63,642 nucleotides of DNA, filler included, from Collodictyon triciliatum (GCA_043381765.1; 6 parts of 5 records of this genome joined end to end with filler, not necessarily neighbours in it); one strand, 5' to 3'; numbered from the whole stretch's first letter, positions 1 to 62,476 are shown. Translations and numbers: made by a program. The notes: a model not told the origin generated them from the letters alone.

Positions 1-90
1 CAATAAAAAACAATAAAAAACAATAAAAAACAATAAAAAACAATAAAAAACAATAAAAAACAATAAAAAACAATAAAAAACAATAAAAAA
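1..90 (+). repeat. (CAATAAAAAA)n tandem repeat
   Basis: Nine perfect 10-nt units read directly. Confidence 0.95.
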
Positions 91-384
91 CAAAAAAAAC
101 AAAAAAATAAAGACAAATTTGCACAAAGTCCTTCAACTGTGCTGCTTTATATTCTTCCCAGAGCAGCTGTATTTGTCTCCTTTCACACTATGAGAGATAT
201 ATTCTTCTTATCTCTTTATTCATCGGCTTCATGTGTCAGCAATATATTTTATTCCCTGAATTTTTTTATTCATATTTTTTCAATATTCCTTGGGTATGTT
301 GCTCTTACAGAGAATATGCCTTCCACAGAGGCTTACAAGCAGATATTTAATTGCTTACTTTCAAAAAGGCGGAGAAAAGAAAGC

Positions 385-3038
385 ATGGAATCCGAGCGCA
401 TGTGCCCTGCTTGTGCAGAAATCCTCGATAATCCTCGCCAACTGCCGTGTGGACATGTGTACTGCTTTGAATGTCTTCAAAAGTTCGCAAACAATCTCTC
501 CAATGTGGGCTCTGCAGCCTCAAAAGTCGAAAGTATACAGTGCTACATGTGTGATCAAATTCATACCTTGGGGGAGGATGGCTTGTTGAAGCTTCCACAG
601 TCTCAGTATCATGTGGAGCTTGTTGATGCCTACAAATCTTATGAGACTTCGAAAGCGCTTTGCTGGCAGTGCGACGAGCCGGCAGTCTCTAGGTGTGTCA
701 GTGGATGTGGCAACATTTGTGGTGGTTGTGTCTCTGCTCATGGCTCGATGGTTGCTTTCTCGTCGCATGTCGTCATGTGAGTTCATTATTCTTTTGAGCT
801 TTACCTTTTTTTTTCAAATACATGAGACTTTTCAAAAGATGTTTTCAAGAGTCATGTTTGATCACTTAAGCTAATAAAAAGTATTTTCAATGTTTTTTCT
901 GATTTCACATTCGAATGCCCTGACAGTGACGGCATTTCAAGTCGTCCTGGTGCATTTGATACAATCTGCCCGAAGCATTCTCATGATTTTGTAGAAGTTT
1001 GTCCTCACAAAGAGGAGAGCAACAGCCGATTCATGTGCTATGAGTGCCTTGTTGATCATTTGAAGGAAAAAGGACAGCATCAGCATGATAAATATGAAGA
1101 GGGATGTAGAATATTGATTAGAGTGCTTCAAGGCATACTTGATAGCTTTAGTCAGAAGACTCAAGAAGTGACTTTGTGTCGCGGCAAAATACAGTCCGAA
1201 ATGGAGAAGGTTGATAGCTTATAGAAATAAAGTCAAATAGCTTATTCATCACCGCCACAATAAATAGGCCATCATTTTGAATTATAGAAAATGACTTTAA
1301 TTACTCGTGGTAGAACTGATAATTTCGATGAATACCTTTGAAGCAGGCATAAGTTTTTTTTTTATTTATTTAGGCAGATAGATTGGTCCAAGATTTGGAA
1401 AAAACACTCACTGCAGAGATGAATGGGGTGATGGCCAGTATCAGAGAGGAGGAAGCACAAATGCTCAAATCAGTAAAGAATAGGATATTATGGAGCCAAT
1501 TTGATTTTCGTTATGCTCATATTTCTTGAAATGTCCGAGCTAATCACTACTTTTTTAGATACGGATTTTTCAGGAGCAAATATCGATGCCTTTGCTGGAC
1601 GCAAGTGGGAAGCTGGATATTTTATTCAACCACATTCAATACTGTAAGAATACCATCGAAAACTCAATACAAGTGTATCACGAAGAAAGGTCGCCCATGA
1701 AATTCCAGGTAGCTTTGGAGTTTGGTGAGCTGGTTCAAAAGAAAAGACCGCATAATATTGTAGGATTTCTCGAAAGAAGACATTTTGTGATTCCAAAAAT
1801 CCAGATATTTAGAAAACATAAGGACCGAATATCAGGGTTAGAGCTGGAGCTTCAACAATCAAAGGATGAGGGAAAATCGCTGATGTCTCAGATAGACCAA
1901 TTAAAAAACCAAAATAAGTTGAACAAAAAAGAAATAGCATTTAAAAATATTGAAAATAGTCGCCTCTTGCAGGGAAATCATTCATTACGGCAAACAAACT
2001 CTAGTCAAAAAAGCACAATTGCTAGTCTTGAGAAAGAAAAAACACAAATGCAGAGTATATTTAAAGAACAAGAACTACGCATCGAGGTGCTTGAAAAGGA
2101 AAATGTAGAAGTAAAGCAGCTGAATGATGATTTGGGCTCTCAGGTTAAGCAGCTACAAGATGAGGTTCAAAAGTTAGTGAATTCTTATAGTGAACTTGAA
2201 GAAAAGGAAAACCAACTTAAACATAAGTACGAAATTTTAAGAGTAACAAACGTTGGACAGAATAATACCATTACAAGGCTTCAGAAACAAGCCGTAGAAC
2301 TCATGGCCAAAATCAAGGAGAATGGCGTTATGATCGAAAGTCTGAAAGCTGATAGGGAAAACTATCGTCAATCAAGCGAGGTTCACTTAAATCGATATAC
2401 ACAATCTCAAAAAGAATTGAAAATTTGCAGTGAGCAGAACGACAACCTTTTCCAACAGATTGAGGCTCTGAAATCTGACAAAAGTAAACTAGAAGGTGAT
2501 AAGCAGCAACTTGACCAGAAAATATCACGAATCCAAAAAGAACTTGAGCTGAAACATATCAGTTTTCAAGAAATGGAAAAACGCATGAGAAATATCCAAG
2601 CTGAAAGAGACGAATCGCTAAAATCATATGATACAGTCAAAACATCCACGAAGCTTTTGGAAGAAAATCGCCTTCTTAAACTTGCACACGACGAGAAGTT
2701 CAGAGAAAAGCAAAAACTGGAGGAAAACAATCGAAGGATTCAAGCAGCTTTATCCGAATGCGACGCGTTGATCCAGAGAATGAAGAGAGAAAACGAGGAT
2801 CTAAAATCGGACGTACAAAGTAATATTTTATTCATCAACATAATTTCTTCAATTTCGGAAATCTAATTCCAAAAAATAAGATTTCCAATACACATCGGCC
2901 AAAGAGAAGCTGGAGCTTTCCGAAAGAATTAAGAAACTGGAGGCTGAAAACGATGATATCAAACGAGTTTTAAGTGAGCAAGAGACATTCACATCCCGAA
3001 ATGCACCGTTTTTTGATGATAGAAACAGTAGCGGATGG
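385..3038 (+). CDS. TRIM/RBCC-like protein (RING, two B-box-like zinc fingers, long coiled coil); 3' end unresolved
   Basis: RING CPAC..LPCGHVYCFEC..CYMC; B-box-like CWQC..C..GC..CGGC..H and CPKH..C..MCYEC..H; heptad-rich ORF 1586-2866. Phase-compatible GT-AG exons at about 385-776, 927-1209, 1374-1472, 1559-2819 and 2881-3038. Confidence 0.85.
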
Positions 3039-3580
3039 GTAATTTCTGACTTGATGTTTACAATTGTATTTTATATAACTTAATGGTAAAAATGTGTATT
3101 ATATCGCTCAACATGAAATATTTAACATTTAAAAAAGTCTGTAAGTGATACCAATGATAAGTCCATGATTATTTTTGACCAAAAACAAGTCTTGATGAAT
3201 TAATTTATTTAAATTTCGAAGTGTAAGTTGAATTTTAAAACACAAAAAAGTTTATACTTAGCAATAGAAAGGTTTTCAATAGCATTAGTCTCAAGTCCAT
3301 TTTTGATATCTCTATTGAAGACTGTAATAATTTATATTTTTAAATGTCTATTACTTATTTATGAAATTGTGTTTTCTGATGAATTTATTTCATTTAAATA
3401 AAGACCGTAAGATAATTCTATGTAATAGAGAAAAAGGATAATTTGATGGATTGCAGACTTAATATTTCCTTCTTTATTTTGTTAAAAGTTTGTGAGATTT
3501 TTTAATTGCATTATCACTGTCAGATTTATATAAAATCTTCCATTCTTAGATAACGTTTTGTTTAAATTAAGAATGTAATT
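3039..3580 (+). other. Candidate array of six 1-3 nt microexons separated by 80-99 nt introns
   Basis: AAG|TCT|GTAAGT (3138-40), AAG|T|GTAAGT (3222), AAG|ACT|GTAATA (3321-23), AAG|ACC|GTAAGA (3404-06), AAG|TTT|GTGAGA (3489-91), AAG|AAT|GTAATT (3572-74). Confidence 0.6.
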
Positions 3581-4744
3581 TTTGATTTTTTTGAATAAAT
3601 ACGAAGAAACCCATTCTAATTTAAGTTTCATAAATCTGTAAGAGGGAGTATTTTTTATTTCTATTAACACATATTTCATATTTGGGAAACGAAATAAAAA
3701 ACCCATTATTTCTAAATTTTCACCGAATTATAGACTAGCTGGTAGTTAATCTTATACTCTTGAATAAGAATATCATGTTTTTCTCATATGGTATTTTATA
3801 TACTACATCGCAGTCTTTGAGCCGTGGTAATCATCGTTTATTACATTTGATTCTATTCCAAAGTCTTACTGTCATATAATATTGTTAAATCTAACCTGCT
3901 CTCAGTTTATTTTTATACTAAAATGTTGTGATTTATAATCCGCTCTTTCTCTTTATCGACCCACAAATATTCGCAGTAGCGTTTCTTTTGCTCTCTACGA
4001 AGTTGCAAGGGAAACAGCATGGTGAGTTTGAATGAAATTAATGGAAATAACTGGTCTGTGAATAATATAATATCCTATATGTTCATCTCCACGTTTAAAT
4101 GAATTAATTAAGTTTTCATCAAATGGCAACAGAAACGGCTCACTGGAGGAAATATGACGAAATATTGCAAACCATAACAAAATAAAATCTCTTGAAATCT
4201 ACTGCGATTCTTTCAGCACTAATGTTAATTTCGAATCTTTTTTATCTTTACGAAAGAGAAATACACTCGTTTTCATCTGTTGGAAAACAAATATTCGAAT
4301 GGAAATAAATGGCGAGGGAAATAGACTGAAATCACTATTTTTGTGATCAAATGTTATTCTTATTTTATTTTTTTGTTTTGTTTCACGTTGAGTCTGAATC
4401 ACTCATTTGTGACCAGAATTGTGGAATGGTAGAGGGCGGTATCAAATGAGCCTTATCAGTAGCCATTTAACTTTAACCACAACATTCTAACGGCTGGTTA
4501 TCTCCCCAGAGGTTTATGAGTCTGTGAATGCAAGTGTCAAAGGAGAAAACGCGGTGCAAGGTGTTTTCATACTATTATCTTAAATGCAGATAGCAGTCAC
4601 ATTTCCTCAATTCAGTAATAATGTGCTTTTAAAATTATAGATGATGATACATTCTTAACAGTTTAACAAGTGTGACATCAGTAGATGTTGATTTCTTTCA
4701 TTTTGATCAATTCTTATTCCTCTTTTTATTCATATAATTTTCGA

Positions 4745-7700
4745 TTAATGAAGGTATTTGTTTTCAGTCATTCCATATTCATCACAGTCATTGACTGGGT
4801 CGTCAATCCATTCCACATGTCTACAAAACATTCTCCATGAATTCGGCCTTCTCTTAATGATGTACACGTTCCCGCAAGATAAATGCCTCATCTCCTTACG
4901 AATCAACACACTAAATTCAAATTCTGGGGATGTTCTCATGGCACTGTAAATATTTTCTGATACCTAATTTTTCTTCCTGTTAATTTTCTAATTGAAGGAA
5001 ATGGGAACACACATTATACTGCAATAAAAAACCAATAATTGAGGCTTAATAGTATTGGTTTAAAAATCCTATAGGAAAGCTCCCTACACATGTGTTATTC
5101 TCGGGTATACTAGAGACTACGGACAAGCATTCAGAAACTATTCGAGGTGACGATGAGATTTTTTTTGAAATGGCCTGATATGTATTTATCCCTAAGGATG
5201 ATTTTACAAACTTGGTTTTCCGTAGCAGTCATAAAGGAATTTCTCGTTTCCTATGATAAAATAAAAATCAAATAAGCAAACATTTCATAATATTCGTAAT
5301 ATCTTTGAGAATTTTTTTTTGGTAAAAATAACCGAAGATTCCAGTCGTGACTTCCCCCAAACATATGGATATCTTCGACTGAAGAAAGATACCCGTATAA
5401 CCCAAGCTAGCGCCAGATACCAAGGACTGAGCCTGTAACAAATGTTAGAGCAATTATTCTATGCACGAACTTTTAAAATCTTCAAGGCTTTGATTTTCCC
5501 AGTATTTCAAGTAACAAGTGAGATTCAGATTTCAATAGACTTGCGTTGAGACTGAAATTTAAAGCTTTTTCGTAGCGCAACAGGCTGTTCTCAGATCTCT
5601 CTAAACTTCTTTCGACCGAAGGAATGGGTCTTGATAAGAACTAGATGTGTTATAAAAATACAATCTTGATTATCCACAGAATTTTTTTCACATAGACACC
5701 TTGACGATATGATAATATGAAGGAGCTTAAGAAGAGATAGGATTATGAATACAAAATATATTACAATAGCTGCAGTTCCCGTCGTTTTTAGGATTTCTAT
5801 GTTGTAATTCTTTGAAAAATCCTCCAAACAAGAGAACAGGCCTGTACAAAATTGTCTTTAAATTCGAATACAAAAATAATCATATCATACAATACGGATA
5901 CCTGACAGAGACTCAAAGGTGCCAGAGTGTGTATATCCGATTGAATTTCTTGGGATAATGATTTCGAGGACTATGACTATAGCATCTTTTATTGACTGAA
6001 ACATTTGTAATTTTCTTTGCTTCAAATTACGGTATAGCTCCGGAGATAGAACAGAGACGAGAGCTTGTTCAGATCTTTTATTCTCCTCAGATAAATTATA
6101 CATGAACTGTAAGTAGACGAATGAAGTTTATTAGCGGCCTTTAATTGAGCTAGTATAAAATTTCTTAACCTATACCTCAAACAAGATGAGACGCACAGAA
6201 AGATGGAAGTACCTCTAGAAGCAGCTTATTATCGATGTACTCTTTTCGACCAGAATAATCCCTAGTCAAGGCAAAAATGTAGAAGAGCATCGTCGGTATT
6301 ACAGACCAGATTATAAGTGGCTGCACAGGATAATAGGAATCGAACCTGTTAACGAAAAAAGAAATGAAGACAGGAGTGATATTACTCACCATGAAACAGT
6401 ATTCTAAACCAAAAAAATGAAAAAATAATGATGTTTACCCAAAAGCTGTTCCATATTTAAAGAATAAGATTATGGATAGAGATAGCCCGCTGACAAGTAA
6501 ATAAAAAAGATCGATGCTCATAACATTCGTACTAGAAAGACAAAACATTCCAACTTTGTATGTTTCAGAGTAAATAAAGGCTGAGTGGTTCCATGACAAA
6601 TTACAACCAAAGCCAAAATCTCCAAAAATATAAAACAATCGACCAAAAGAAAATATCTGATATACAATCGCTGTAATAAATGGAATATTCCGGTAGGTAA
6701 TGTGAGTTTTTAGACTAGACATAGGAGAATATGACAAGTAAAAGGCCAAGGTCAAAAGAAATACTGGAGGTGGAAACAGAATGAACCGATAAAATGTGTA
6801 ATACTTCTGAGAAATGAGGTCGATATGACAAAAGTCCAAAATTATTGTCAAGTCCACAAATCCGAACATTATTAGACATATGACAATAGTAATCATTTGT
6901 ATCCTAGTCATTGATGAAATGCAAAGTTTTAGAAAATTGGCCTGTCATCACGAATTTTACAAAAATTGATCAACCTACACTGTAGTAAATATATTGTGAC
7001 TTGTCTCCAAGCTTGTTTGATATTCTCTCTCCGTTTCATCATCAACAAATCGCATATCACCCAAAAGCCCATATAAACCTCTATCTCTTCTAGCCAGGCT
7101 GTATGGGTCCAAAGATCTCATTTCGTGCTTATTTTTGAGGTGAAATGAGTCAATAAAAAATAAAATATTGTTATTACTAATAGACTGTATTTTCTATGAT
7201 TGTGATTATTATTTTTAATATTATTAAAAAAATGAAAGAGTTGAAAAGCATCACGAAAACCTCTTTAGCTGCATCTATGCCATTGGAAAAATCACTTTCT
7301 ATATTCGCAGATTTATTTTGATTGCCATGATTGTGCTTTTCAGACTCATATGTGGTTCCTCCATCGGTGTTTGAGTGGGCCGAGATACATAACCAAGTAT
7401 CATTTCCCCCAATGAGGCATGCCTCAAATCGAAGGATGCGTTCCTAGGTCAATCTGTTACATGCTTTTCAAAGTCATAAAATATCTTAAATTTACATCAA
7501 CAGGCGCCTTTTGTAGCCATGTTTCTTTCGTTGAGTCATCTAAAATCAATTCCCACGCTGAAGCGTTTTCAAGACAACGTCTAGATGCTGCTTCTCCTGT
7601 TCCCAAGTTTACTTTCTCTTAGAATACCAAATTTATATGAAAATGCGTAGCAAATAATTCCATATTTAAGGGTAGACAACCTTCACCAAATATGTCAAAG

Positions 7701-10313
7701 CTAGATTTGGAGTACTTGACTATACCACCTTGTACAGTTCCAGAGCCAATTCCAATTGAAACTGTTAACTTTGAAAATATTCGTGGAAAATTATTTTCAC
7801 GACATTTTTGATTAAGGAACTTAAATACACCACGGTTTCTGTAATTCATGTTGGATGGCCTTGCCCTTTCATACCTTGCAAAAATTTTCTGCTTTACATT
7901 TTTTAAGTATTTCATGTGCTGCCATTACAACATCAGAAGAATCTTCTCCAAATAAACCACTAATACCCTGTTAAATTTCAAAAACAAAAAACAAAAAACA
8001 AAAAACAAAAAACAAAAAACAAAAAACAAAAAACAAAAAACAAAAAAAAAAAAACAAAAAACAAAAAAAAAAAAACAAAAAAAAAAAAAAAAAAAAACAA
8101 AANNNNNNNNNNNNNNNNNNNNNNNNNNNNNNNNNNNNNNNNNNNNTTAATTAATTAANNNNNNNNNNNNNNNNNNNNNNNNNNNNNNNNNNNNNNNNNN
8201 NNTTTTTTTTACCACGATGCGAAGCCCTACATTATTTTTCTTAATTGTAACACACCAAATATTGGAATTAACCGTGATTAATGGGCATACACACAACTTA
8301 TTAAATTAATCTATTGAAACATACCACATGTTCTCACTTTGTGGATACGATAGCTATTTTCATTAAAAACAATTTTATGGACCACAATTTATTACTTCAT
8401 GCCTAAATTACGAATTACAAACTACAAATTCCAAATCGAATGATTATTTTATTACCACTGAAAAGCTTCGACTATAATCCTATAAAGGGTCATAAGTTAG
8501 TTTTCGAACAATAGTTTCCATATTCAATATTTTGAGATAATCACCCATATGCCCTTTCTATTTCTATCCTTAGAACTGCTGTAGGAAACACTGTATTATC
8601 TTCCGTTACATTTATCATTACGGACACAGTGGCACAACAAGATGCCTGATAAAATGGGTATTCTTCCCGTTCGAGTAGAATGGAATTCATAACAGGCCTG
8701 ATTTGGATAGCTTCAAAATTAGCAACTGAGGGGTTTTTTGTTCTAAAATCGAATAATAATATGATATCATTCAAAATGATTTAACTTTGGATAGATATTT
8801 GATAGGATGGCTTTCGTTCTCTCCTTCGTCTCAGATATCCTTTTGTTAATCCACCTCATCTTTCTGGTGGAGTAGAATGAACTATGATAAAATGCCATTA
8901 GGAGAGTAGAAAAAAATTGGGTTATATGAATGACAAACTTCATCCTCTGCAATTCCATTGTTTTAAACAAGGTGAAGCTTAAAGCTGAGGTCAAGAAAAT
9001 GGGCGAAAAGCACCGATATATAACAAGATAGTCTGATGTGGACCACAGGAGCAGGGAAAGACAAATTAAATTTGCATAGACCACCAAAACCACTTTTATT
9101 CGGTAATAACCGGGGATGACTATGAGCAAGCCCTAGGTATATAATTTTATGTTGATTTTTTTTTTTTTGTAAATAACAAAGAAAATGGACTGCAAATACA
9201 CTTCTGGCCACGAATATTGTAAATTTTACCGTGACAATAATTTCTACATCACTCAAGTTTCTGTCTACCATGTGAATCGGTATGAAAAGGGCAAATATGG
9301 ATACTGAGTAAAGATAGAACACAATCACCAAGACATGGAACAACCTCAAGATTTTTTTGTGATTAGTATGTAATTCGTGGTAAATATTTTCTAAGCCTTG
9401 AAAAAAATGAGGGGAAACTTACTTTGTATGAAAATTGAGGTCTCTATGAGCTTTTAATCTACGACGGAGGTAGCGAAATAGAATGGCAAGTATCATGCTT
9501 AAGATTGTAAATGCCAAGAACATAAGGGAAGTTTGAGGCCATTGTAGGCTATAGATTTTTTTTTAAAAAAAAAGCGCATTAAGATTTTTCTTTTTAGAAG
9601 CGCAATATTCAACGAAAGGGAATGAGGCTGATCCTTTGTGTATATATGAAATAGGAAAGCAGACATAAGGTCATCAAGGTATCCTTTCTTTCAAAAAATG
9701 AGTACCAAACGACCAAAAAAATATTTATTTATTTTTAGTATTCCTACTAGCTGTAAGTTTCGATGATTCCATATATGACCCCAACCAAAGAGTAATAAAA
9801 CAATATTGTGCTATAGTTTCTTGCTGTATAAAGTCTGTACTCAGATTCCATCCTAGTATTTTCAAACCTACCAAATCATATGATTGGTCCGTAGTAGGGT
9901 AACATGGAAAAGTTAAATCCTGTCGATCCAAAAAAAAAAAAAAACATCCAAAGAAAACGACGGATACATAGCAAGGAAGCATTTATCGAAAGGCGATTGA
10001 AAATGAACAATATTTCGACGATTGAGTACCTCAAACTCCTACCGCAGATCGACTTGGCGGGAAATCCGACCCCCGAAGGCAGTAAAGACTCTATGTGGTC
10101 GCCTGCCACTGAAAAATCCTGGCATTCTCCGGCCATTTCTGTTCCATGAAGCTGCGAAGATAGATCGCTGAACGCAGCATCGTTGTTTCCCAGCACCGAT
10201 CTTTCATGGGGGACGCTTCTGACGTGCATTCGAAGGAATTGTCCGTGGCGCTTTGTTGTGGCATATTCTGTGCGGCTGACAGCGTGCCCTGATGATCGAG
10301 TCTTCGGTCCCAT
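4745..10313 (-). CDS. Multi-pass membrane class III adenylyl/guanylyl cyclase-like protein (M1-C1-M2-C2), multi-exon, spanning the 8103-8202 spacer
   Basis: Two TM bundles, each preceded by an RFxxxxxExEY motif. C1 has HKVRTCGLRIV|GISGLF and SIGIGSGTVQGGIVKYSKSSFDIFGE; C2 has EILKTTG, KISICLGEVTTGIFGNEKFLYDCYG and VSENIY..FEF. The start at 10313 is tentative. Confidence 0.75.
7980..8102 (+). repeat. (AAAAAAC)n low-complexity tract in an intron
   Basis: Directly visible; abuts the spacer. Confidence 0.9.
8103..8202. other. Artificial contig spacer 44N-TTAATTAATTAA-44N
   Basis: Identical 100-nt cassette carrying six-frame stops, found five times in the window. Confidence 0.97.
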
Positions 10314-15114: not shown

Positions 15115-18100
15115 CTACCAAATGGAAAATTGCCTTGAACTCTCAGATGCAAGTATCAGCTCCTTATCAGGCCCGATGGCGACGATACTCAATTCATTGA
15201 GCCTTGCGTACGTCAACGCTAACCCGGAATATGAATATGCAATAACAATATCCATGTGCCGAACCAGAAACCCGCCATTAAATCCCTTATGTAATCCATA
15301 AGGATAGCCCATCTTGAATAGGCTTATTTCGCGCAGTTGCTTCCCATTGGAGTCGAAAACACGCACCAAATTTAAGTCAGGTAAGAGGATGAGAACTTCG
15401 TCCAGATGGTTGACATACAGCCCCGTGACCCTTGTTTTTACAGCCCCACCAGGGAACGTAGTGAAGCTATATAAAAACTCGCCAGAAATGCTAAACTTCA
15501 TAATTCTGTTTTGTGCATTTTCGACGACGTACACATTCTCCGCAGAGTCAGTAGAAAAATAGTCAACGTACATTAAACCAAGAGGCGTCTTATCACCCCC
15601 GATGACTGTGCGTTCCTGTTGCGAGTTTATAAAATAAATTTGGTGTCGCGCGCTAGGTAGAGCAACGAAATTGTGGCCATCATTTGAGATGTAAATTGAC
15701 TTGAACGGGGCCATCGTAATGTCTGGAGCCCAAACACTTTGGTGATGAGTTGGCTCAAAGGGGCAACTCTCATACATAACATTCCTGAGTCCTCTTTGCC
15801 TGACATAGTCAACATTTTGCGGATGGAGGATATACTGAAAGAAAACATTTCGGTATAACCTTTGTCGTGTAGAGAGAAGAGCTTGGCCTTCTGTATGACT
15901 TAACGATTCCCTTCGCCAATTGGGATATCCTTTTATTATAAAGTGGAACTTTCTGCTACTGATATACATGGCTCCGTCAGAGCTGAAAGCTGCACTGGCC
16001 GGAGACATAATTCGTACTGTTCTTCGAATCTTATGGACTTTTGAGCGAAATTGTATCATGTGCTTGTCATAGTTTATCAGCATGTAGTCGTCTCCAAGTG
16101 TTGGTGCGAAGAAGGTTTTTGTGACATTCTCATCCATTTGAATAACTTTGACGCGGATACCTTTCTGATTGAAAATGTATATCTTTGCACTATCAGTATA
16201 CGTGACAACATATTCTCCCAGTGTTGTAATATGGAAGCATGATGGTAAACCTGTCTCCCACGATGAGGGATCTCTCAGATATATGTTACCGATGAAGTCT
16301 GCATTCCTGCTTATTTTTTGAATTCGTTGATTCATCCGGTCAAGTATGTTGACGTTGTGTGATGAATCAATAATGACTTTTGTAGGCTTGTTGAATTGAA
16401 GAGGTTTTTGGCCTTTTTCACAAAAAACTGATAAAATTTTCCCGCTACCGTCCAAGAAATAGACAGCATTTGCGGAAGAAGACACCACAACCATAAATGA
16501 ACCATCTGGTGCAATTGACATGCAAGTAGGAGCTATTAAGCGATAGAGGTCACCCTCATTTGTTTCGATTGAACGAACAAAATGTAAATCTTGGCGGAGA
16601 ACTTGAATTCGATTGTTTCCTTTGTCCACTACATACAGTTCTTGGGTGATTGGATGTATTGCCAGTGTTTGGGGTGTTCGGAATTGATTGTACTCTGAGC
16701 CACGGCTGCCAGCGTACTTTACATGGTCCATGAATAGAATTTGCCTAGGTACGTAGCGTTCGTCCGACCAGAGTGTGTAGTCAAAGTCTACAAGATTTGG
16801 AAAGACATGGATTTCGCTGGAGAGTCGATAAGACAAGTCCTTGATATGGCCTGCTGGTGTGACCTTGATTGAATCCAATGAAAGCCACACAGTATAGGCA
16901 CGGACATGGTTCAGTGATGGTTTTTTTGGCGCTCTTCGCTGGCTGGAAGGGGCTTTCAGTATTGAAAGCAAAAGCTTCAATCGGTTGTAGATCATTCCCG
17001 AGTGATATTCCATTGGCGAGTATATCTTGAGCATGTTTTTCTTTGACGTGTTCAGCTTTTTTTTTGGTAAGGTTTTTAAAGCATGATGTAAAAAAAAATA
17101 AAATAAAAGGTATTTGTTTAGGAATAGGAATAGGAATAGGAATAGGAAAAGGAATAGGAATAGGAATAGGAATAGGAATAGGAATAGGAATAGGAATAGG
17201 AATAGTATAACAGAAATAAAATATAATAAAACAAAAACAAAAATGAATAAAAATATTGAGTTAATAGTGTTTCTAAAATGGGCCATATGTATATGTACAA
17301 TACCAAGGCAAACCTGTTTGAACATATTTTCCTCGAACTTGGTCATCAGCTCAGTACGTTGCTGGATAGACTCGATGATGGTTTCATCCACCTTTCCAGA
17401 ATAGTCTGCAAGCTGTTTAAATAACAGAAAATCACGTCACTCAATCTAAAATTTAAGCTTTCTTTATTTCATTTGACGTGCTAAGAAAAAAATATACGCA
17501 ACAAGTCGTAGTTTTCGTACGTTTTTATTGAACTTTGCTGTCTGTTGATGACAGATAGTAGCTATATTTACCTTATCCATGATGTCGTCGTATGCTGTGT
17601 ATCTCTCTTTAGTTTTATCGATGAGACTCAATGCATATTCTTTCTCCTCCTGCGCACCTTGAAGTGCTTCAAAATCCACAATCGCCAGCTCGCTCTCAAT
17701 CTTTTCTACAACACTATGAACAGACTCCAACATTAAGTCTTTTTCTTGTAAAACATCTTCCTCGCTGTCCGGTCTGGTTTCTATCAAACGCTCTCGATGG
17801 GTGGTCAGGTCACCTGCTTCGACAGGAGATGGTGATACGCCTGCAGGCGACTTGGCTGGCTTTGCTGTCGAGGGCTTCCCCTTTGATGGAGGTGTCTTTT
17901 CCGCGGGTTTTGTGCTTGGCTTTGGTGCTTTGCTTGCGGTTGAAGGTCGGCTGGTTATGTTTGGGGGTTTGAGGGCAGGATTCACAACAGTCAGTGCAGG
18001 TGCGGCGGGCTTTGTTGGTGTGCGCGTTGTACTTGAAGGTGTTGCCTTCTGATCCTCTTCTTTGAGTGTGTGAGACTTCCACGATCGCGTGGGTAAGGCG

Positions 18101-19246: not shown

Positions 19247-19346
19247 NNNNNNNNNNNNNNNNNNNNNNNNNNNNNNNNNNNNNNNNNNNNTTAATTAATT
19301 AANNNNNNNNNNNNNNNNNNNNNNNNNNNNNNNNNNNNNNNNNNNN
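19247..19346. other. Artificial contig spacer
   Basis: 44N-TTAATTAATTAA-44N. Confidence 0.97.
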
Positions 19347-19356
19347 GGTCGCGTAC

Positions 19357-19517
19357 CGTTCTGCTCCAGGGTGTTGACGAGCTGGGCGACGGTGCTGCGC
19401 TTCTGGCCGACGGCGACGTAGATGCAGTAGAGCTTCTTGGTCTCGTCGGAGCCCTGGTTGTTTGAGCGCTGGTTGATGATGGCGTCGATGGCGACGGCGG
19501 TCTTTCCGGTCTGGCGA

Positions 19518-19552
<35 letters not shown>

Positions 19553-20453
19553 GGGGACGAGCGAGTCGATGGCCTTGAGCCCGGTCTGCATGGGCTCGTT
19601 GACGGACTGGCGCGGGATGATGCCGGGGGCCTTGACCTCCACGCGCGTGCGCGAGTCGCCCTTGATGGGGCCCTTGCCGTCGATCGCCGTGCCCAGCGCA
19701 TCCACGACGCGTCCGAGCAGCCCGCGGCCTGGGGTGGGCGGTTGTGGGCGGTCAGAGGCGGTGTTTGGACGGGCGAGTGAGGTGGGGGTGACGGGTAAGG
19801 TGGGGGGGACGCACCGACAGGGACGTCGACGATGGCGCCCGTGCGCTTGACCATGTCGCCCTCCTTGATGACGCGATCGTTGCCGAAGACGACCACACCG
19901 ACGTTGTCGCTCTCGAGATTCAGGGCCATGCCCTTGAGGCCGGACGAAAACTCCACCATCTCACCGGCCTGCACCTTGTTGAGCCCGTAGACGCGCGCAA
20001 TACCGTCTCCCACGGAGAGGACGCGGCCCACCTCGTCGATCTCGATCTTGTCCGTGTAGTTGACGATGCGCTCCTCCAGGATGGACGACAGCTCGGCCGG
20101 GCTGATGGAGGCTGCGCGCGGCGGCAGCGTCAGTGTCCCGCTCTCGGGAGTGGAGTGGAGTGGAGGAGAGGAGAGAGAGGGGAGGAGAGAGAGGGGAGGA
20201 GAGAGGGGGCTTGGATTTGCGGGAGGGGATGCGGAGAGGAGGTGGACGTACCAGTGCTGCGCACGCTGGTGGCGACGGCGCGGACGGCGGTGGTCTGGAT
20301 GGGGAGGGGGAGAGAGAGAGGGAGGGAGGGGGAGAGAGGGAGGGGGTGAGTGGGCTGTGGACGATGGCGGGCGGGTTTTCTCGAGGGGGTGGATGATGCG
20401 CTTACCGAAGGGGCGAAGAGGCCGCGCAGGGCGGGGGCGATCTTGGACAGCAT
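19357..20453 (-). CDS. ATP1: Mitochondrial F1 ATP synthase alpha subunit, nuclear-encoded; 5' part only, truncated by the spacer
   Basis: [23 protein letters not shown], Walker [24 protein letters not shown]. Exons 20453-20406, 20294-20252, 20111-19815, 19728-19357. Arg/Ala/Ser-rich presequence with no acidic residues. Confidence 0.97.
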
Positions 20454-21498
20454 TGTGGGGTGCTACGCGCGGGGAAGTTAGTGCGGGCTGTGAAGAGAGG
20501 GGGAGAGAGAGAGGAGAGAGAGGAGGGGCTGAGAGCGAGAGAGAGGCGGCCTGTGCCACTGCGGATCCATCTCACGCGCGGGTGGTGTTTGGGTGTGCGG
20601 CTGTACCAGTGGATGTGGATGTGGACGTGCGACAAGAAACGGACTTTGGAAATGGGTTGTGTGGTTGGTGGTGACTGGAAATCGGCCTCATTTAGTGAAT
20701 TTTCGCACTTACTGGATTTTCGGTGGGGAAAAGTGCTTTTGGTTTCTTTGTGTCCTGGAGGATTCTTAATTGCACACATTTCCATGGAAAATTAAAATAT
20801 CCGCATCGTGTCCTGATTCTGATACGATTTTTTCCACACACACTCCTGTTTCAGAAAACCACAAAAACGCGCCAAAATACAAACATTTAAAATTATAAAA
20901 TTTCCAATTGTGGAAGAAATTTATTCGTCATCATGTGACGCAATCGATTAGAAAATTGCAGTGATTATGGGCAATAGACCGATTATGTACTGAAGACATT
21001 AAAAATTCAATGAATTGGCCTTCATTCAACCATCTTGGACTGAAAAAATTATATGGAAAATATCACGGTGCAGATGGTCATGGTGTCAAGGCTGATTCCC
21101 TGTCCATCGAGGTTCGATTCTTGTCTCATCTATGTTCGAGCCTCGGGTGATGTGCCATGCTTGGTTATTGGCGAAACACTCTTTGTTTTTCTTAAGCTCT
21201 CTTTCAGTTTCGGCTGTGTGGACTCATAACTGGAGACACGAAAACTACACCCAGGAGAGAACGCTGGCTATCTCGGGCAATTTATTTTATTCTTTATTTT
21301 TATATATATATATATATATATATTTGCTAGGCGAGCCTGAGTATCACTGCCGCACTGCAGCAAAGTAGGCCCCAAGGTAGCATTTCTGTTGCCCAGTCCC
21401 CATCCCCGCACTCTCATTCTTTTTTAAAACGAGATGCTCTCTGCAACTATAGGTCCTTCACGCACAAGTCAAGTTTTTTTTAAAAAAAAATAAATAGA

Positions 21499-28532: not shown

Positions 28533-28730
28533 GTATGATACACTAAATCTAAAAATTTATTTGATTAAAGCCAAAAACTTAACTATACCACAAAATTGAA
28601 TGAAAGAAGAAAAAACTTTAGTTTCCTTTATTCAAATCAAATAAGGAAAAAATAATATCTTGCTACAATTTTAAGGCATGTCATAAATTTGTTAAGCAAC
28701 ACTAACTTCACGTAATAATCTATTCAGTAG

Positions 28731-31700
28731 GCAATCACAAATATCCTGGCGAATATATGAATGAGATAATATTACAAGATTTAACAAACCAGATCTGTAA
28801 TGGTATAGTCCTTCCTCCTTTTTGCGACACAAGTGTCCTAGATTGTTATAAGAGCCTGGGTGAATCATTCAATATAAAATTTCGTGAAGACGGAGTATTT
28901 CAAATACATTCAATTTTAATGGGCGGTGGCAATACGTCATCAAGAATGGCTCGAGCAAATGCTGCACCGGCTTCATCAGCGAGAACTCAGAGCGTTCGTG
29001 CCGATTCAGCACTTGATATACTCGAAATTCTATCTAAGCTGAATGACGCATCCCAAACCTTCAGCGGTGATTCAAAATCTGGCCCGAATATATCAAATAC
29101 TTCCTTACAATTGAGTCAAGTGTTAGCTTCTCAATTACTTATGAGTCCTAATAAAGAGGAAGATATTCAAATATTGGAAAGACTTGCTGCGCTTCATATA
29201 TCGATAGCTGAAAAAAAATACGCAATTCAAAATCGTGTCTTACGTGAGCAAGCTGACATTTCTGAAAAACAAAATGAGTCAAACCAAAGGCTAGTTCAAA
29301 GTCTTATAGACCAAGTTTTAAGACTTCCAGTTTCTCAGCAAACCTCTCAAACAATTGATTCATTGGTGCGTGCTATGCCTTTTAGTGGAGGATTAACCTT
29401 AAGTCATTCGAACACCACATTTCCATCCATACAATCTCTTGAGAGAAATCATGCTACCACACCACATCAAGATTTAAATAAAGATTTACCTGCTCATAGT
29501 TCACATTTAAACCCTAATAGTTCTGGAATAGTTAAGCCAAATCTCGAAAACGAGAATTCCATTCAAGCACTTCGTATTGTAACACCGAGTACGACAACTT
29601 TTAACCAATATGGAACAAAGGAAGCTTCTCCAACCGATGACCTTGATTGTTCAACAAATTTCCAAGATAACAGCTTGGGCTTAATTAATCTACCTAATTC
29701 TTCGTCTATAATACAAGTCCCCACCAGTCTAGCGATCACTAAATCAATATTAAGATCAAATGATGTTGACCTCTCCTTGGTTTTTAGTGATTGGGAAATT
29801 AAAAATTGCAAGTATATTGAGACACCTGTTAACACATCCGAGCTTGCTAAAGCCATATCTGAGCAACGAGAAAAAGAATCTGGCAATAGTGCTGAGAAAA
29901 AAAGAGCTCTTCGCATAATCAAGCTATTTATGAAAGAAAAAACTGCTTGGGACGAGAGCTTGGATGAACTCGCTGCACTGGCCCCAGCAGGAGACAAACT
30001 CATTTCAGAAAAGCTAATAACCGCTCTTGGCACGATGATGAATAAAAAAATGGAGAAGCTAGACCGCCTGCTAAATGCCTTAAATATCGTTGTGGGGAAT
30101 ACACTGAAGGAGGATTTCAATCACTCTTTGCTTGCTCAAGTCCTAGATATTCTGATTGAACGTGTCGGTACTCTCTTCGCCTCAGACGAGGCTTTATGTC
30201 AAAGGATAATAGATACTCTGATTTCCATATTGAATTCGCTGTATTTTTCTGGTGCATCAGGAATTTCTGAGGAGAAATATAAAGCATTCAAAGAGACATT
30301 TGGACAGAGCTGGATTGAAAAGAAAATTGAGACCCGTGGGGAAGAAATCGAGAATAAGATAAAAAATCAATATTATAAGGCTAAGAAATCCTTGTTCTGT
30401 GAGCTACTGAAGCACATTGGCGATGGTCAGAATCCAGTCGTAAAGAGACTGAAAATTGTTGGGAAAATCGGATTAGGTCTAGTATTTTCCGCTTCCTCGG
30501 CATTCTGGTTTGACATAAGTGGCACTCTAGATTCATTGCAAGAAATTGCCAACGCTGTTGGAGAATTTGATATCAAAAAGAGTTGGTTTACATTCTATCA
30601 AGCGTTTCGCATCAGTTTATTCATTAGTGTCGATGAGGCAAAAAAAGTATGGGATTCTCAATTTTCAGGAAAGAAGGACAAAGTTGGAGATACTCTGGCA
30701 TTTCTTATCATAGACACAATTTCTGAACGATTCTGCTACACTCATATTGGCTCTGAGCGACAAAAAGTTTATGAATTGATGGGATACATCACGAAGCATG
30801 AAAAATGGTCGAAAAGCGAGGTTATGAATCGATTTGTGGAAACAAAACAGCACCAAATGGCAACATATAAGCCAAAAGAGTCAAACTTACCTACAATTCT
30901 TTTTGAAAAAGCTGGTAAAGACGAAAGAACAATTCAAGATATCATTGATAATATCAAGGAGGAGATCATTCGAAACGAAGAATTTAACAATCGATTCAAC
31001 ATCTATATCTCTTGTCAAGCCGAAAGAATTGCTGAGAAAGGGAAAGTGTTTGATGCCCAAGAATACATCCTGAATTTCATCACATCTGGAAAAGACAAAG
31101 TGCTGCTCGTACTTGGGGATTCTGGCTCTGGAAAATCACTATTACAACAATTTATTGTGCGATTGCTTTGGGAAAAGTATGAATACGGAAAAACACATAT
31201 TCCATTGTATGTTGCCCTGACTTCGTTGGAAAGCCCCAGAGAAAACGTCATCGAAGAACTGCTGCTTTCTGAAAGTAAAAATAGCTTCTATATACCAGAC
31301 TCTGATTTCCGAAAAGATCAAATCAAAGAACTAAAAAAGATGAAATTCATAATTTTCCTGGATGGTTACGATGAAATTGAAGATAGCGGCAAATCCTTTT
31401 ATAATTCAAATAAACTTGAAGAATGGACCAACTGCAAGTTTGTGATTGGATGCCGCAAGCAATTCTTGGACAAGAAACCTCACTACCAATCATTATTTGC
31501 ACCTAAAGCTAGTCATGGCTATTCTCTTGATGAAATATATCTGAGACCTTTTGAAAAAAGGCAAAGAATCGATTATTTTAACAAGTTTGCTGCAAGAAAT
31601 TCGGTTGAAGGATGGAGAAAAGGAGAAAAATACGAAGAGGAATTAAGAAGGATAAGGGAACTTGATGAGTTGTCTGTCACTCCATTTATGATTTTCATGG

Positions 31701-34700
31701 CAGCAACCACACTTCCGTCTATACTGAAGGACAGAACTGAGTCAAAGTCGAAGGAGATGGCAAAAATTATGAGAACAGATTTCCTGGACAAGTTTTCAAG
31801 AAGGTGGTTTGAACGTGAAAGAGAGAAGCTTGAAGGTAATTTGTCATTGACACAAAAAATGCCTAAGGATTTAGATAGTCTCTTGGAGCGAAAATGCAAG
31901 AAAATAGCAAAGTGGATGCATGAAAAAGAAAATAAACCTGCGCTTGAATACGAATATATCGAAGGAAAGGCAAAGAAGCACGAATACGATGAGTTTTTCC
32001 ATCCAAATCCAGACCATATGATTGATGGTGAGCGAACATTCTCTGTCTTTGTTCTGCGATGTGCACCTATTAAGAAATCAAGTGCCACGACCTATGAGTT
32101 CTTCCACAAATCGCTCTACGAATTCTTTGCTGCTGAATACATCAAAGATGAAATAAATGTTGCCGACGCGGAAAATCAAGCTTCTGCCCAACCATCGACG
32201 GAAGGTCAAAATGCTGCATCTTCTTCTGAACCTGCGAATTCTATTTTCGAAAAGTCTGACACGAAATCACCAAGATTCAAGCTTTCAAATGTTGTACATT
32301 CTGTGATGAAATCAAAAGGGAAGACGAATGTTCTTGATAGAATGCTAGAGCCTGCTATTCTGCTCAATCTGAGTGAAAAAGTGAACAAAAACAAAACTTA
32401 CAGAGACAACCTGTTTTCAATCATCGAGCAATCCAAAACAGATGCAAGCCAAGCGCAAGCTGCATCAAATGCCATCACAATTCTGAACTATGCCGATGTT
32501 TCTTTCAGTGGCATGGATTTCAGAGGGATTCAAATTCCAAATGCCGATATGTCACAGTCTGTTGCAGATGGTGCTGACTTCACTGGTGCCAATTTGGAGG
32601 GTGTTTTGCTCTACAATGCGTGCATTTCGAACTGTGTCTTTGATAATGCGAATATGAAGAACATCAATTTTGGTCGTTTACCGATGTTCTTGGGTCACTC
32701 AGATTATGTCTCTTGTGTTTACTATTACGATGGAATAAATGGTGAGCCATTGCTTGTATCGGGAGGTTGGGATAACACAATACGTATTTGGGAAGTAGCC
32801 ACAGGAAAACAAATCAAATTATTAGAAGGACACACAAAAAGTGTCAACAGTGTTTGCAGCATTCAAGGGCCGAATAGTGAAAAGTGGTTGGCTTCTGGAG
32901 GTAATGATAAAACAATACGTATTTGGAAGTTTGTCACAGGAAACCAAATCAAAATATTAAAAGGTCATACAGAACGTGTCGCCAGTGTTTGCAGCATTCA
33001 AGGACCGAATGGTGAAAATTGGCTGGCCTCTGCAAGTGATGATAAAACAATACGTATTTGGGATGTAGCTGCGGGAAATCAAATCAAAACATTAGAAGGA
33101 CATTTAAATTATGTCAATAGTGTTTGCAGTATTCAAGGACCGAATGGTGAAAATTGGTTGGCGTCAGGAAGTTGGGATAATACAATACGTATTTGGGATA
33201 TAGCTACAGGACTACAAACTAATATATTAGAAGGTCATAAATATGGAGTATACTGCGTTGGTATATTTCAGGGACCGAACAACAGAAAATGGTTGCTATC
33301 AGGAAGTTCTGATAGAACAATACGTGTTTGGGATGCAGCCACAGGGAACCAAATCAAAATACTGGAAGGACATACAAAAGAAGTCAAGAGTGTCTGCAGC
33401 ATTCAAGGACCAAATGGTGAAAATTGGTTGGCTTCTGGAAGTGATGATAATACAATACGTATTTGGGATGTAGCCGCCGGAAATCAAATTAAACCATTAG
33501 AAGGGCACACTGGTGATATCAAGATTATTTGCAATATTCAAGGACCAAATGGTGAAAATTGGTTGGCTTCTGGTAGTGTTGATACAACAATATGTATTTG
33601 GGATGCAACGACGGGCTATCAAATAAAAGTACTTCAGGGGCACACTAGTTCAATATACTGCATTTGTAATGTTCAAGGGCCAAATGGTGAAAATTGGTTG
33701 GCTTCTGGAAGTTTTGATAAAACAATACGTATATGGGATATAGCCACAGGGAATCAAATCAAAACGTTAGAAGGGCATACAAGTGCAATAATGAATGTTT
33801 GCCACATTCACCTTCTGAATGGTGAGTTTTGGTTGGCATCTGGAAGTCGTGATAATACTATCCGAATTTGGGATTTAGTATCAGGGAAATCTCTAAAAAT
33901 ATTGAATGGACATTTAAACCCTGTCAATACTATTTGCAATATTCAGGGGCCTAATGGTGAAATATTGCTAGCCTCTGCGGGTGATGATAAAACCATATGC
34001 ATATGGGATGTTCTGACAGAGAATATTTTAAAAAAATTACAAGGTCACACGAAGGATGTTGAAACGATATGCTCTTTCCGAGGTGACAATGGGAAAAACT
34101 ACTTGGCATCTGGTAGTCGTGACAGTACAATATGCATTTGGGATTTGCTGGATGGAACTCTTCTCAAGAGATTTGAATGTGATAAAAAAGAGGTAAAAAT
34201 TGTTTACCCTGCCCAAGGACCAAATGGCGAAAAATGGTTGGCTTCTGTGGGTGATGACAAAATCATACGAATTTGGGATGTAGCCTCTGGGCTTCAAATA
34301 AGTTGTTTAAAATCATCTGAGTTGACATATACAGATAAAAATTTCCTCGTTAAAAGAAATGACCCCTATGAATTCATTTCATCGCTCAATAGTAGAAGTG
34401 ATGCTATGAATCTCATCGATACCAAGAGAATTATGAATACCAAAACTGTTCGAATAATTGGCCCAAGAACTTTAGAAGGTAGAAATATTTGCATCAGAGA
34501 CGTGATTGGACTAAGTGTGATGAACAAGGCCCTGTTTTTACAAGAAGGTGCTGTCTCTTGTGATGAAGACTTTATTGCCTATTGTGAGCAGGCTAAGGTC
34601 ACGAAGTTTCAAAATCAGATGATGGCTGAATGCTATGAAAATGGATGGGTCGTAGACAAGGATAACGAAGCAGCCGCATATTGGAGACAGAAAGCTGATG

Positions 34701-34787
34701 ATCCAGAAGGTAAATATACGATCATATTTATTAAAAAAATCAATTGAACTGTAAATCAATTCCTTATTTACAGGAAGCTGTGCTTGA
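28731..34787 (+). CDS. NLR-like NACHT NTPase with helical N-domain, pentapeptide repeats, 12 WD40 repeats and a C-terminal Sel1-like repeat
   Basis: Walker A GDSGSGKS (31115-31138), Walker B FIIFLDGYDE, YEFFHKSLYEFFAAEY, AASNAITILN followed by pentapeptide repeats, 45-aa GH..WD repeats and MAECYENGWVVDKDNEAAAYWRQKA. A probable last intron 34710-34773 gives ..PEGSCA*. Confidence 0.93.
32693..34312 (+). repeat. Coding tandem repeat, 12 x 135 nt (WD40 units)
   Basis: Recurring CAAGGACCAAATGGTGAAAATTGGTTGGCTTCTGG..ACAATACGTATTTGGGAT; Gly codons of the GH motif at 32693, 32828, 32963 and onward. Confidence 0.93.
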
Positions 34788-35095: not shown

Positions 35096-35195
35096 NNNNN
35101 NNNNNNNNNNNNNNNNNNNNNNNNNNNNNNNNNNNNNNNTTAATTAATTAANNNNNNNNNNNNNNNNNNNNNNNNNNNNNNNNNNNNNNNNNNNN
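35096..35195. other. Artificial contig spacer flanked by T-rich and (TTTTTTCTCTC)n tracts
   Basis: 44N-TTAATTAATTAA-44N. Confidence 0.97.
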
Positions 35196-38084: not shown

Positions 38085-39422
38085 ATGAGTTGCACCAACG
38101 ACACCGAACCACCCATTCCGTTCAACCGTCCGTATTACACAGGTAAGATGTTGCGTGCATTGACAAATATATGTGTTGCGCACGACGGGTAATTGCAGTG
38201 TTCATATGTTTTAATTTATTTTTTTTTAACCTCACCTATTTCAACATCTTCGTTTAAGGCATTTGATTATGATATTTTGTGTAAAATTCATGTTCGACTC
38301 ATTCCAGGCGATGAAGTAAATGAGGTCAATAAGTTGTTCCAAAACAAGAGCGGATTATCGGGTAACGGGCCAATTACCAAAGAATGTCAAGCTCTACTCA
38401 GAAAAAATCTGGGGACTCCTTTAGCTCTTTTGACACAATCAGGGACAGCAGCCTTGGAAATGTGCGCCATTCTATGCAACCTGTCCATAGGCGATGAAGT
38501 AATCATGCCGTCTTATACATTCGTGTCCACAGCCAATGCGTTTGTTCTCCAAAAAGCCACGCCAGTTTTCGTTGATTTAGATATGAATAGAGTTGGAGTC
38601 GACCCCAAGTGTATCAGAGCAGCAATCAACCCAAGAACGCGAGCTATTTGTGTGGTTCATTACAGCGGCATCGCTTGCGACATGGATGAAATAATGTCCA
38701 TAGCAAAGGAATATAATCTACTGGTGATAGAGGATGCTGCCCATGCGGCGTTTGGAAAGTACAAAGGAAAAATGCTTGGAAGTATCGGAGACTTTGCTGC
38801 CTTGAGTTTTCATGAGACCAAAAACATTCAGTGTGGAGAGGGAGGCGCTCTTCTCGTAAACAACAAGAATTACATCACCCGCGCTGAGATAATATGGGAG
38901 AAAGGTACTAATCGGAAGCAGTTTCTTGAGGGAGTCTCACCAAAATATTCTTGGGTTGATGTTGGCTCTTCTTTCTTGCCGAGCGAATTGACAGCCGCTG
39001 CACTTTTACCACAACTGAAGAAGGGCTTTGAAATCACTAAAAGGCGTAGGGAAATATGGGCAAAGTATCATCAAGGGTTGTGGAATCTTCATACACAGGG
39101 CAAGCTCACACTACCTTTGATTCCTCAAGATGCAGCCGAGCATTCAGCTCACCTTTTTTTCTTCTTTGCAAGAAGCCCCGAGGATTTGCGCGAAATTGTG
39201 GCGGAAGGGAAAAGACGCAGGATAAGTTTGATGCAGCATTACGTCCCGCTGCACTCGTCCCCATATGGCACCAAAGGGGCTCGCTCAAGCGGGTTGATGG
39301 CTAATACTGACTGGGCCGCAGCAACGCTATTAAGGCTGCCTTTGTGGTGTGACTTGACTGATGATATGGTCGAACGGGTGATTAGTGTAATTTCGGATGT
39401 GCTATCTGAAAAATCGTATTGA
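38085..39422 (+). CDS. wecE: dTDP-4-amino-4,6-dideoxygalactose transaminase-like (DegT/DnrJ/EryC1/StrS family), one intron 38143-38307
   Basis: IPFNRP, GDEVIMPSYTFVSTANAFVL, IEDAAH, SFHETKN (PLP lysine), EKGTNR, YSWVDVGSS, HYVPLH and LLRLPL match the WecE/RffA subfamily. Confidence 0.93.
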
Positions 39423-57990: not shown

Positions 57991-58090
57991 NNNNNNNNNN
58001 NNNNNNNNNNNNNNNNNNNNNNNNNNNNNNNNNNTTAATTAATTAANNNNNNNNNNNNNNNNNNNNNNNNNNNNNNNNNNNNNNNNNNNN
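57991..58090. other. Artificial contig spacer preceded by (AAT)n
   Basis: 44N-TTAATTAATTAA-44N. Confidence 0.97.
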
Positions 58091-62376: not shown

Positions 62377-62476
62377 NNNNNNNNNNNNNNNNNNNNNNNN
62401 NNNNNNNNNNNNNNNNNNNNTTAATTAATTAANNNNNNNNNNNNNNNNNNNNNNNNNNNNNNNNNNNNNNNNNNNN
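62377..62476. other. Artificial contig spacer flanked by (CT)n and poly-T
   Basis: 44N-TTAATTAATTAA-44N. Confidence 0.97.

Follow-up and report, generated by a model that had tools for sequence, protein, structure and literature searches.

A run of five, probably six, consecutive exons of 1–3 nucleotides at the end of the coding sequence of a RING-finger gene

Five exons of one to three bases each, lying in direct succession at the 3' end of a coding sequence, have their bases present in RNA in the predicted order, with the intervening segments absent. The stretch 3039–3642 of the window (by which we mean the whole DNA analysed, 63,642 bases, linkers included) is best explained, with a probability that we put at about 85%, as seven ordinary U2-type GT-AG introns placed head to tail, with 3, 1, 3, 3, 3 and 3 exon bases between them, all of which are spliced. 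The introns would be of this organism's usual small size (99, 81, 98, 80, 82, 80 and 68 nt), and the same overall explanation includes a minor form of the transcript that keeps intron 6 and a protein of about 735 residues that combines a RING finger with a B-box-like region and a coiled coil.

The array and the RNA contigs that cross it

A sequence-only reading had drawn attention to the DNA that follows a phase-0 donor at 3039, in which six GT..AAG segments, with the first six of the lengths given above, are separated only by TCT, T, ACT, ACC, TTT and AAT; on rechecking of the sequence, its coordinates, lengths and hexamers all proved correct. The acceptors of these segments are AAG in six of six cases, and the donors are, in order, GTAATT, GTAAGT, GTAAGT, GTAATA, GTAAGA and GTGAGA, with a further GTAATT after AAT. 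Beyond the six, a seventh GT..AAG segment of 68 nt (3575–3642) lies directly after AAT, and all seven start with GT and end with AG (Table 1).

Table 1. Features of the gene and of the array, in window coordinates
Feature	Position	Strand	Basis or remark
Upstream gene body (RING / B-box-like / coiled-coil)	361..2819	+	exons ~361-776, 927-1209, 1374-1472, 1559-2819
Four ordinary introns of the gene	777-926, 1210-1373, 1473-1558, 2820-2880	+	GT..AG joints in RNA contigs
Final normal-sized coding exon, 158 nt	2881..3038	+	phase-0 end ..AGC GGA TGG (S G W)
Array intron 1, 99 nt, GTAATT..AAG	3039..3137	+	sequence; missing from the X1 and X2 contigs that bear letters of both flanks
Microexon 1, TCT	3138..3140	+	in X1 and X2 RNA contigs; placement unique
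Array intron 2, 81 nt, GTAAGT..AAG	3141..3221	+	sequence, RNA contigs, threading
Microexon 2, single T, sets the reading frame of the tail	3222	+	in X1 and X2 RNA contigs; placement unique
Array intron 3, 98 nt, GTAAGT..AAG	3223..3320	+	sequence, RNA contigs, threading
Microexon 3, ACT in the window, ACC in both relatives	3321..3323	+	RNA contigs; sole mismatch of the X1 threading path
Array intron 4, 80 nt, GTAATA..AAG	3324..3403	+	sequence, RNA contigs, threading
Microexon 4, ACC	3404..3406	+	RNA contigs, threading
Array intron 5, 82 nt, GTAAGA..AAG	3407..3488	+	sequence, RNA contigs, threading
Microexon 5, TTT	3489..3491	+	X2: TT(T) before the last joint; X1: opens a longer terminal exon, intron 6 kept
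Array intron 6, 80 nt, GTGAGA..AAG	3492..3571	+	spliced out in X2, retained in X1 contig 4
Probable microexon 6, AAT	3572..3574	+	on the sole GT-AG path fitting X2; costs one further letter difference
Probable array intron 7, 68 nt, GTAATT..AAG	3575..3642	+	sequence and X2 threading; alternative, a GT..GT intron 3492-3639
3' untranslated region	3643..4318	+	two further introns, ~3827-3976 and 4022-4132; AATAAA at 4304

The RNA evidence consists of assembled contigs, not reads, taken from two runs of one study that are labelled as two different organisms, here X1 (relative A) and X2 (relative B), with one contig per run across the array, at depths of 6.6 and 7.4. Since both runs come from the same study, they count as one independent source. 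In aligned pieces their sequences differ from the window by roughly 0–4% of letters, and they belong to relatives, not to the window's own organism. The type of the runs is recorded as 'RNA? (a guess)'; we take them to be spliced RNA because four other GT..AG introns of the gene are skipped in the same runs. Two other data sets are not informative on the array, X3 (from a second study) aligning to 2282–2495 only and X4 aligning nowhere.

X2 contig 9 (725 nt, depth 7.38) runs through 2532–2819 and 2881–3038, then through the 12 letters TCTTACCACCTT, and then through 3639–3824 before continuing at 4132; positions 268–437 of its record hold 170 letters, which are the 158 of the exon and the 12 extra. 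In X1 contig 4 (230 nt, depth 6.55), the first 27 letters, GAAACAGTAGCGGATGGTCTTACCACC, are loose and equal window 3022–3038 plus 10 letters; the contig is thereafter aligned to 3489–3690 with one other letter and one gap, so that its order is ..GGATGG, TCTTACCACC, window from 3489. The stretch 3039–3488 is without X1 contig coverage, which was counted only alongside the X2 contig that joins across it. When the X1 letters were threaded through the window with GT..AG skips only, exactly one path emerged, with one mismatch: 3138–3140, 3222, 3321–3323, 3404–3406 and 3489 onward, that is, microexons 1–5 of the sequence-only reading. The chain in the relatives' RNA, TCT-T-ACC-ACC-TT(T), is the predicted chain save for one difference, C for T at 3323. 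In the relatives' contigs, introns 1–5 are precisely removed in both X1 and X2 and intron 6 is removed in X2. If a microexon is defined as an internal exon of at most 15 nt, with introns on both sides and present in mature RNA, microexons 1–4 are microexons in both runs and microexon 5 is one in X2, being in X1 the start of a longer exon. The core of the earlier claim, that the tiny spacers are real exons joined to give ..SGW-SYYL-stop, is thus borne out by the relatives' RNA contigs, which have SYHL there, together with the unique GT-AG path.

Because the type of the runs is a guess, the extra letters could in principle reflect a genomic difference, with the relatives intronless here or the runs being DNA. 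The same contigs, however, skip the four other GT..AG introns of the gene, and X1 contig 4 runs from TTT into 3492–3690, differing by one letter and one gap, which means that intron 6 at least is present in relative A in nearly the same form. Exact GT..AG loss of five introns between such close relatives is, moreover, far less likely than splicing, and the window's copy would in that case still need to splice out the array introns to make the same protein. We consider an explanation by genomic difference to be very improbable.

The arrangement also stands out from the sequence around it. The window contains the pattern AG-N(1-3)-GTRA 85 times on its + strand and 57 times on its - strand, the array's six sites are the only ones between 2800 and 4300, and the array is the sole chain longer than 4 when both strands of the window are searched. 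Six or more sites occurred in 4 of 20,000 dinucleotide-preserving shuffles of 3039–3700, and a chain of 5 or more, at a spacing of 60–120 nt, in none of them, the longest being a chain of 4, found in 3 shuffles. The comparison with shuffled sequence that had been proposed for such runs, made here for 3039–3700, thus gave no chain as long as that of the array. Its introns also vary much less in length than 11 ordinary introns from that contig (standard deviation 9.2 versus 37.3 nt; F test, p 0.003), two of these 11 control lengths being off by one base on re-reading of the borders. These results bear on the view that the pattern arose by chance in a 3' untranslated region and that the gene reads straight through 3039, to end VISDLMFTIVFYIT-stop at 3084. 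Such a view can draw on the fact that the unspliced frame does close after 14 codons, and on the composition of the region, which is AT-rich (GC 0.26) and in which GTAA and AAG are common. It is hard to maintain against the shuffles, none of which gave a chain of at least 5, and against the spliced letters found in two RNA contigs, that of X2 joining across 3039–3638, and we give it next to no weight.

The end of the array is less firmly placed than microexons 1–5. Threading of the X2 letters gave no path at one mismatch or fewer and exactly one path at two or fewer, which uses all six microexons and starts the last exon at 3643; the sixth microexon, AAT, fits X2 only with G for T at 3574 in relative B. 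X2 can be fitted with one letter difference fewer if there are five microexons only and TTT is followed by a single non-canonical GT..GT intron (3492–3639), the contig then running from TTT straight to AAGAGGG from 3640 and AAT never being exonic. This would, however, require a non-AG acceptor (..CTGT) in a gene whose other joints are all GT..AG, whereas the canonical path ends on a further AAG acceptor and uses a GTAATT donor identical to that of intron 1. Moreover, about 3% of the letters of relative B (6 in 186) differ from the window in this untranslated part, so that a further difference costs little. For these reasons the GT..GT intron appears to us the less likely solution, the canonical path with six microexons is favoured (about 70:30), and the sixth microexon is probably real.

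With all units joined in the window's letters, the array yields TCT TAC TAC CTT TAA, or Ser-Tyr-Tyr-Leu-stop, and the protein ends ..SSGW-SYYL-stop; in the relatives the second Tyr is His (ACC for ACT), which gives a tail of SYHL-stop. The form that keeps intron 6, as X1 contig 4 does, ends SYYLCEIF-stop in the window's letters and SY(Y/H)LCEIF-stop overall. The stop codon is TAA with microexon 6 and TAG without it. Several proposals of the sequence-only reading about the frame can thus be judged in part. A stop codon built across two microexons, from the last T of TTT and AAT, holds in frame arithmetic, microexon 6 being itself only probable. The idea that the 1-nt exon is a frame switch is arithmetically sound, in that all 32 inclusion patterns without it read on for 31–36 residues and 28 of the 32 with it stop after 0–4 residues, but its skipping occurs in none of the contigs. 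Variable C-termini do exist, to the extent that an alternative end (SY.LCEIF-stop) was seen; it arises by retention of intron 6, and not by the exon skipping that had been suggested as its cause. Since the tail differs (Y/H) between close relatives, its coding content is probably of little weight.

The host gene and the rest of the window

After removal of the four RNA-confirmed introns, the gene is open on the + strand for 739 codons, from 361 to 3038, with a probable start codon at 385. The joints 776>927, 1207>1372 (cut +2) and 1472>1559 are GT..AG and are each found in one X1 contig and one X2 contig, and the joint 2819>2881, also GT..AG, has a depth of 30.3 in X1 and 7.38 in X2. A RING finger lies at the N-terminus, in the first exon, with Pfam matches that are all above their cut-offs (PF13445, E 6.5e-9; PF00097, E 7.1e-8; PF15227, E 7.7e-8); the RING-family matches in Pfam span E 6.5e-9 to 3e-6. 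For the B-box there is one weak match, to PF22586 (E 0.0056, 17.2 bits, under its cut-off of 27), and a second Cys/His-rich stretch, in exon 2, had no match in Pfam. The label 'TRIM-like' given earlier to the gene is therefore fair as far as the RING finger goes and weak for the B-box. The fourth exon (420 residues) looks like a coiled coil: its closest Atlas clusters are the coiled-coil proteins GCC2, CP135 and HOOK1, at scores of 0.93–0.94 that are below the level of reliable recognition and mark these proteins as generic look-alikes.

No orthologue with which to compare the C-terminus was found among proteins of 736–2100 residues when the whole exon or its first 110 residues served as query, which is weak evidence. 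A metagenome scan with the 420-residue exon as query returned 194 pattern matches and no relatives, and one with a 20-letter spliced-junction probe returned 3 matches, about the chance expectation by our own estimate and all in unrelated contexts. Within the exon 1559–2819, contigs of X1 and X2 (depths 12.4 and 11.6) contain a joint that runs back 369 bases, from 2581 to 2213; these 369 bases (123 codons) represent either an in-frame tandem duplication in the coiled coil of the relatives or a duplication that was collapsed in the window's assembly.

No reading frame downstream of the stop reaches 60 codons and, with two more introns and AATAAA at 4304, this part is therefore read as 3' untranslated region. 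X2 contig 9 makes its jump to 4132 here, after covering 3639–3824, and the loose ends of X1 at 3822 and 4132 resemble window 3977–4021. A stretch of 12 nt, TTTCATAAATCT, at 3626–3637 has AAG on its left and GTAAGA on its right and is absent from the X2 contig; one more small exon in the untranslated region might lie here.

Some observations concern the neighbourhood of the gene and the window at large. The same letters, ..ACACTACCTAA, stand ahead of window 361 and of window 4799 (+) on two different transcripts, in contigs of X1 and X2; the window does not contain them, even when 2 mismatches are allowed, and a search of the full-text literature with the 11 leader letters found nothing relevant. 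The shared letters look like a trans-spliced leader. At 4716–5900, both X1 and X2 have the CT..AC joints of a minus-strand gene, and X1 also has a GT..AG joint on the + strand (4945>5075), so both strands seem to be transcribed. The gaps at 8103–8202, 19247–19346, 35096–35195, 57991–58090 and 62377–62476 each consist of 44 N, TTAATTAATTAA and 44 N, a linker with stops in all six frames, and the window is thus a chain of separately assembled contigs; the gene studied lies on piece 1–8102, and genes past 8102 are not necessarily its neighbours. The piece after the second linker has, at 19347–21000, a GC content of 0.50–0.56 against about 0.35 elsewhere and carries an ATP synthase alpha/beta N-terminal barrel (PF02874, E 1.7e-20); this piece may derive from another compartment or organism than the rest. 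Other frames matched to Pfam are an uninterrupted one of 2013 codons with many WD40 repeats (PF00400, E 3.4e-100) at 28706–34747, one of 409 codons of the DegT/DnrJ/EryC1 aminotransferase family (E 5.3e-81), a mainly bacterial family, at 38193–39422, one with NHL repeats (E 9.1e-7) at 15115–17436, and one that is TTC39/Iml2-like (E 6.5e-45) at 40363–41061.

Nature and origin of the array introns

The units of the array are not copies of one another in any obvious sense. That the array is no simple tandem repeat, as the sequence-only reading had held, agrees with the outcome of Tandem Repeats Finder, which reported nothing between 112 and 5283, and with the lack of any autocorrelation period. 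Pairwise alignments of the array introns score no better than alignments with control introns (mean z 0.36 for pairs of array introns, 0.17 for the remaining pairs). No copies of the array introns were found elsewhere in the 63-kb window, where only chance matches of 11–20 nt occur, and introner-like elements were rejected on this ground. The predicted folding of each of the seven introns is no better than that of its shuffled versions (z from -1.2 to +1.4), and Rfam gave no match, either at the gathering score or with the E limit raised to 1. A YTRAY motif lies 8–45 nt from the 3' end in six of the seven introns; as its chance of occurrence is 0.52 per intron, the motif does not discriminate. 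In the absence of repeat, similarity, copies, fold or Rfam match, these are therefore ordinary, unrelated-looking short introns that share signals and size alone.

Runs of introns of similar size, each with a small RNA, do exist, SNHG14 being an example (PMC11608373), and introns 2 and 4 contain TGATGA-like words. One might thus suppose that the array is a small-RNA host, in which a mirtron or a snoRNA is made from each intron of about 80–100 nt and the tiny exons are a by-product. The range of fold z values, the silence of Rfam and the finding that the units are no more alike than they are to control introns all speak against this supposition; a mirtron or snoRNA host was rejected on the first two counts, and we hold this reading to be most improbable.

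A different question is whether the array grew through successive tandem duplications, each of a unit with two introns and two microexons, its signals and lengths being held by selection while the sequence decayed. The intron lengths alternate (99/81, 98/80, 82/80), with unit sums of 184, 184 and 168 nt, and they are far tighter than those of ordinary introns; short direct repeats spaced 184 nt (81% over 21 nt) and 168 nt (78% over 23 nt) apart are present close to the 3' ends of introns 2, 4 and 6, and the pair formed by introns 2 and 4 is the best of the 78 intron pairs, with a z of 4.3. Control pairs, however, score equally high (intron 2 against an unrelated intron, z 3.9), and the mean z in the array is close to that of the other pairs, as given above. 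Autocorrelation z is 1.2, 0.95 and 0.5 at lags of 184, 168 and 83, against a median maximum of 2.9 in shuffles, and the microexons are unequal in length (1 versus 3 nt). We therefore regard an origin by duplication as a tentative suggestion, and a rather unlikely one. Arrays of this kind could also result if a long intron, or a 3' coding stretch that can be dispensed with, were divided up into introns of the favoured 80–100 nt. Be that as it may, the array is more likely a tolerated product of the way in which this lineage makes or subdivides introns than a device.

Splicing of the array and its relation to known systems

Exons of 1–3 nt cannot carry exon-definition signals. Because such exons cannot be defined across the exon, each intron of the array would, on general knowledge of splicing, be recognised as a unit across itself, that is, by intron definition. 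U1 snRNA contacts donor positions -3 to +6, and with so few bases between the introns the acceptor AG of one would fall inside the U1 zone of the next donor; neighbouring introns would therefore not be engaged together, and removal would have to proceed one intron after another. Stepwise removal of the array introns is thus plausible. Its kinetics would be akin to those of recursive splicing, except that 1–3 translated bases would be left at each step, and the strong, near-consensus donors together with the uniform AAG acceptors may compensate for the missing exonic help. If the seven introns must indeed be removed in sequence, this could, though less probably, also impose a built-in delay or checkpoint before the mRNA is mature.

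Single exons of 1–3 nt are known rarities. Constitutive exons of 1 nt have been described in Arabidopsis APC11 and plant VPS55 (PMC4674806; PMC8831610) and in Fusarium CYP621A (PMC12940212), and for VPS55 conserved strong GTRAGT donors are reported beside the 1-nt exon (PMC8831610). The array resembles these cases in having, between two GT-AG introns, a one-base exon on which the frame depends and which annotation and standard aligners overlook. In those genes, however, a lone tiny exon is set between normal exons, whereas the array has five, probably six, exons of 1–3 nt consecutively and has them at the very end of the coding sequence. The isoforms of RPS24 differ at the C-terminus of the protein. 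Consecutive microexons are described for this gene, with three of 3, 18 and 22 bp between exons 4 and 6 (PMC11162997), and for a plant Peptidase M1 gene, with adjacent ones of 5 nt and 12 nt (PMC8831610; PMC11096116). Both cases show several microexons in a row, as in the array, and one of the RPS24 microexons, of 3 nt, lies towards the 3' end of its gene; but there the runs are of two or three, mostly of 5–22 nt, as against five to six of at most 3 nt, and the RPS24 microexons are alternatively used, while those of the array are all included in the contigs seen.

Two further systems invite comparison. In Drosophila, zero-nucleotide recursive splicing takes place at ratchet points (bioRxiv 10.1101/006163; PMC8605326). 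There, as in the array, an acceptor abuts a strong donor in non-coding sequence and stepwise removal is likely, but ratchet points leave zero nucleotides and lie in very long introns, whereas the array keeps 1–3 translated bases and has pieces of 68–99 nt. None of its sites is an AG|GT with zero nucleotides, 1–3 nt being retained at six of six, and the whole stretch is 604 nt, not a very long host intron. The micro-exon genes of schistosomes have symmetric exons of 3–81 bp and introns of up to 5 kb, and these exons make up most of a secreted protein (bioRxiv 10.1101/2023.06.21.545858). Like them, the array places many very short exons in one gene; unlike them, it has an asymmetric exon of 1 nt and short introns (68–99 nt) and concerns the last 4 codons only, 13 nt of a coding sequence of about 2.2 kb being microexonic.

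A run of five or six exons of at most 3 nt was not found reported in open-access full text; the supplement of PMC8831610 could list more adjacent microexons. As the parts are standard introns and microexons, the novelty lies in their arrangement. It is doubtful that the spliceosome of this lineage routinely handles runs of exons down to one base, with a wider genomic class that has escaped annotation and a 1-nt exon that serves as a regulated frame switch. Gene predictors and spliced aligners would end this protein with a false read-through tail of 14 residues and would fail to see similar structures elsewhere. Five to six such exons in direct succession in a natural transcript would make an extreme test case for splicing. 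The array offers a substrate for asking in which order abutting introns are removed, and it would show that the pairing of splice sites across an intron can suffice with virtually no exon.
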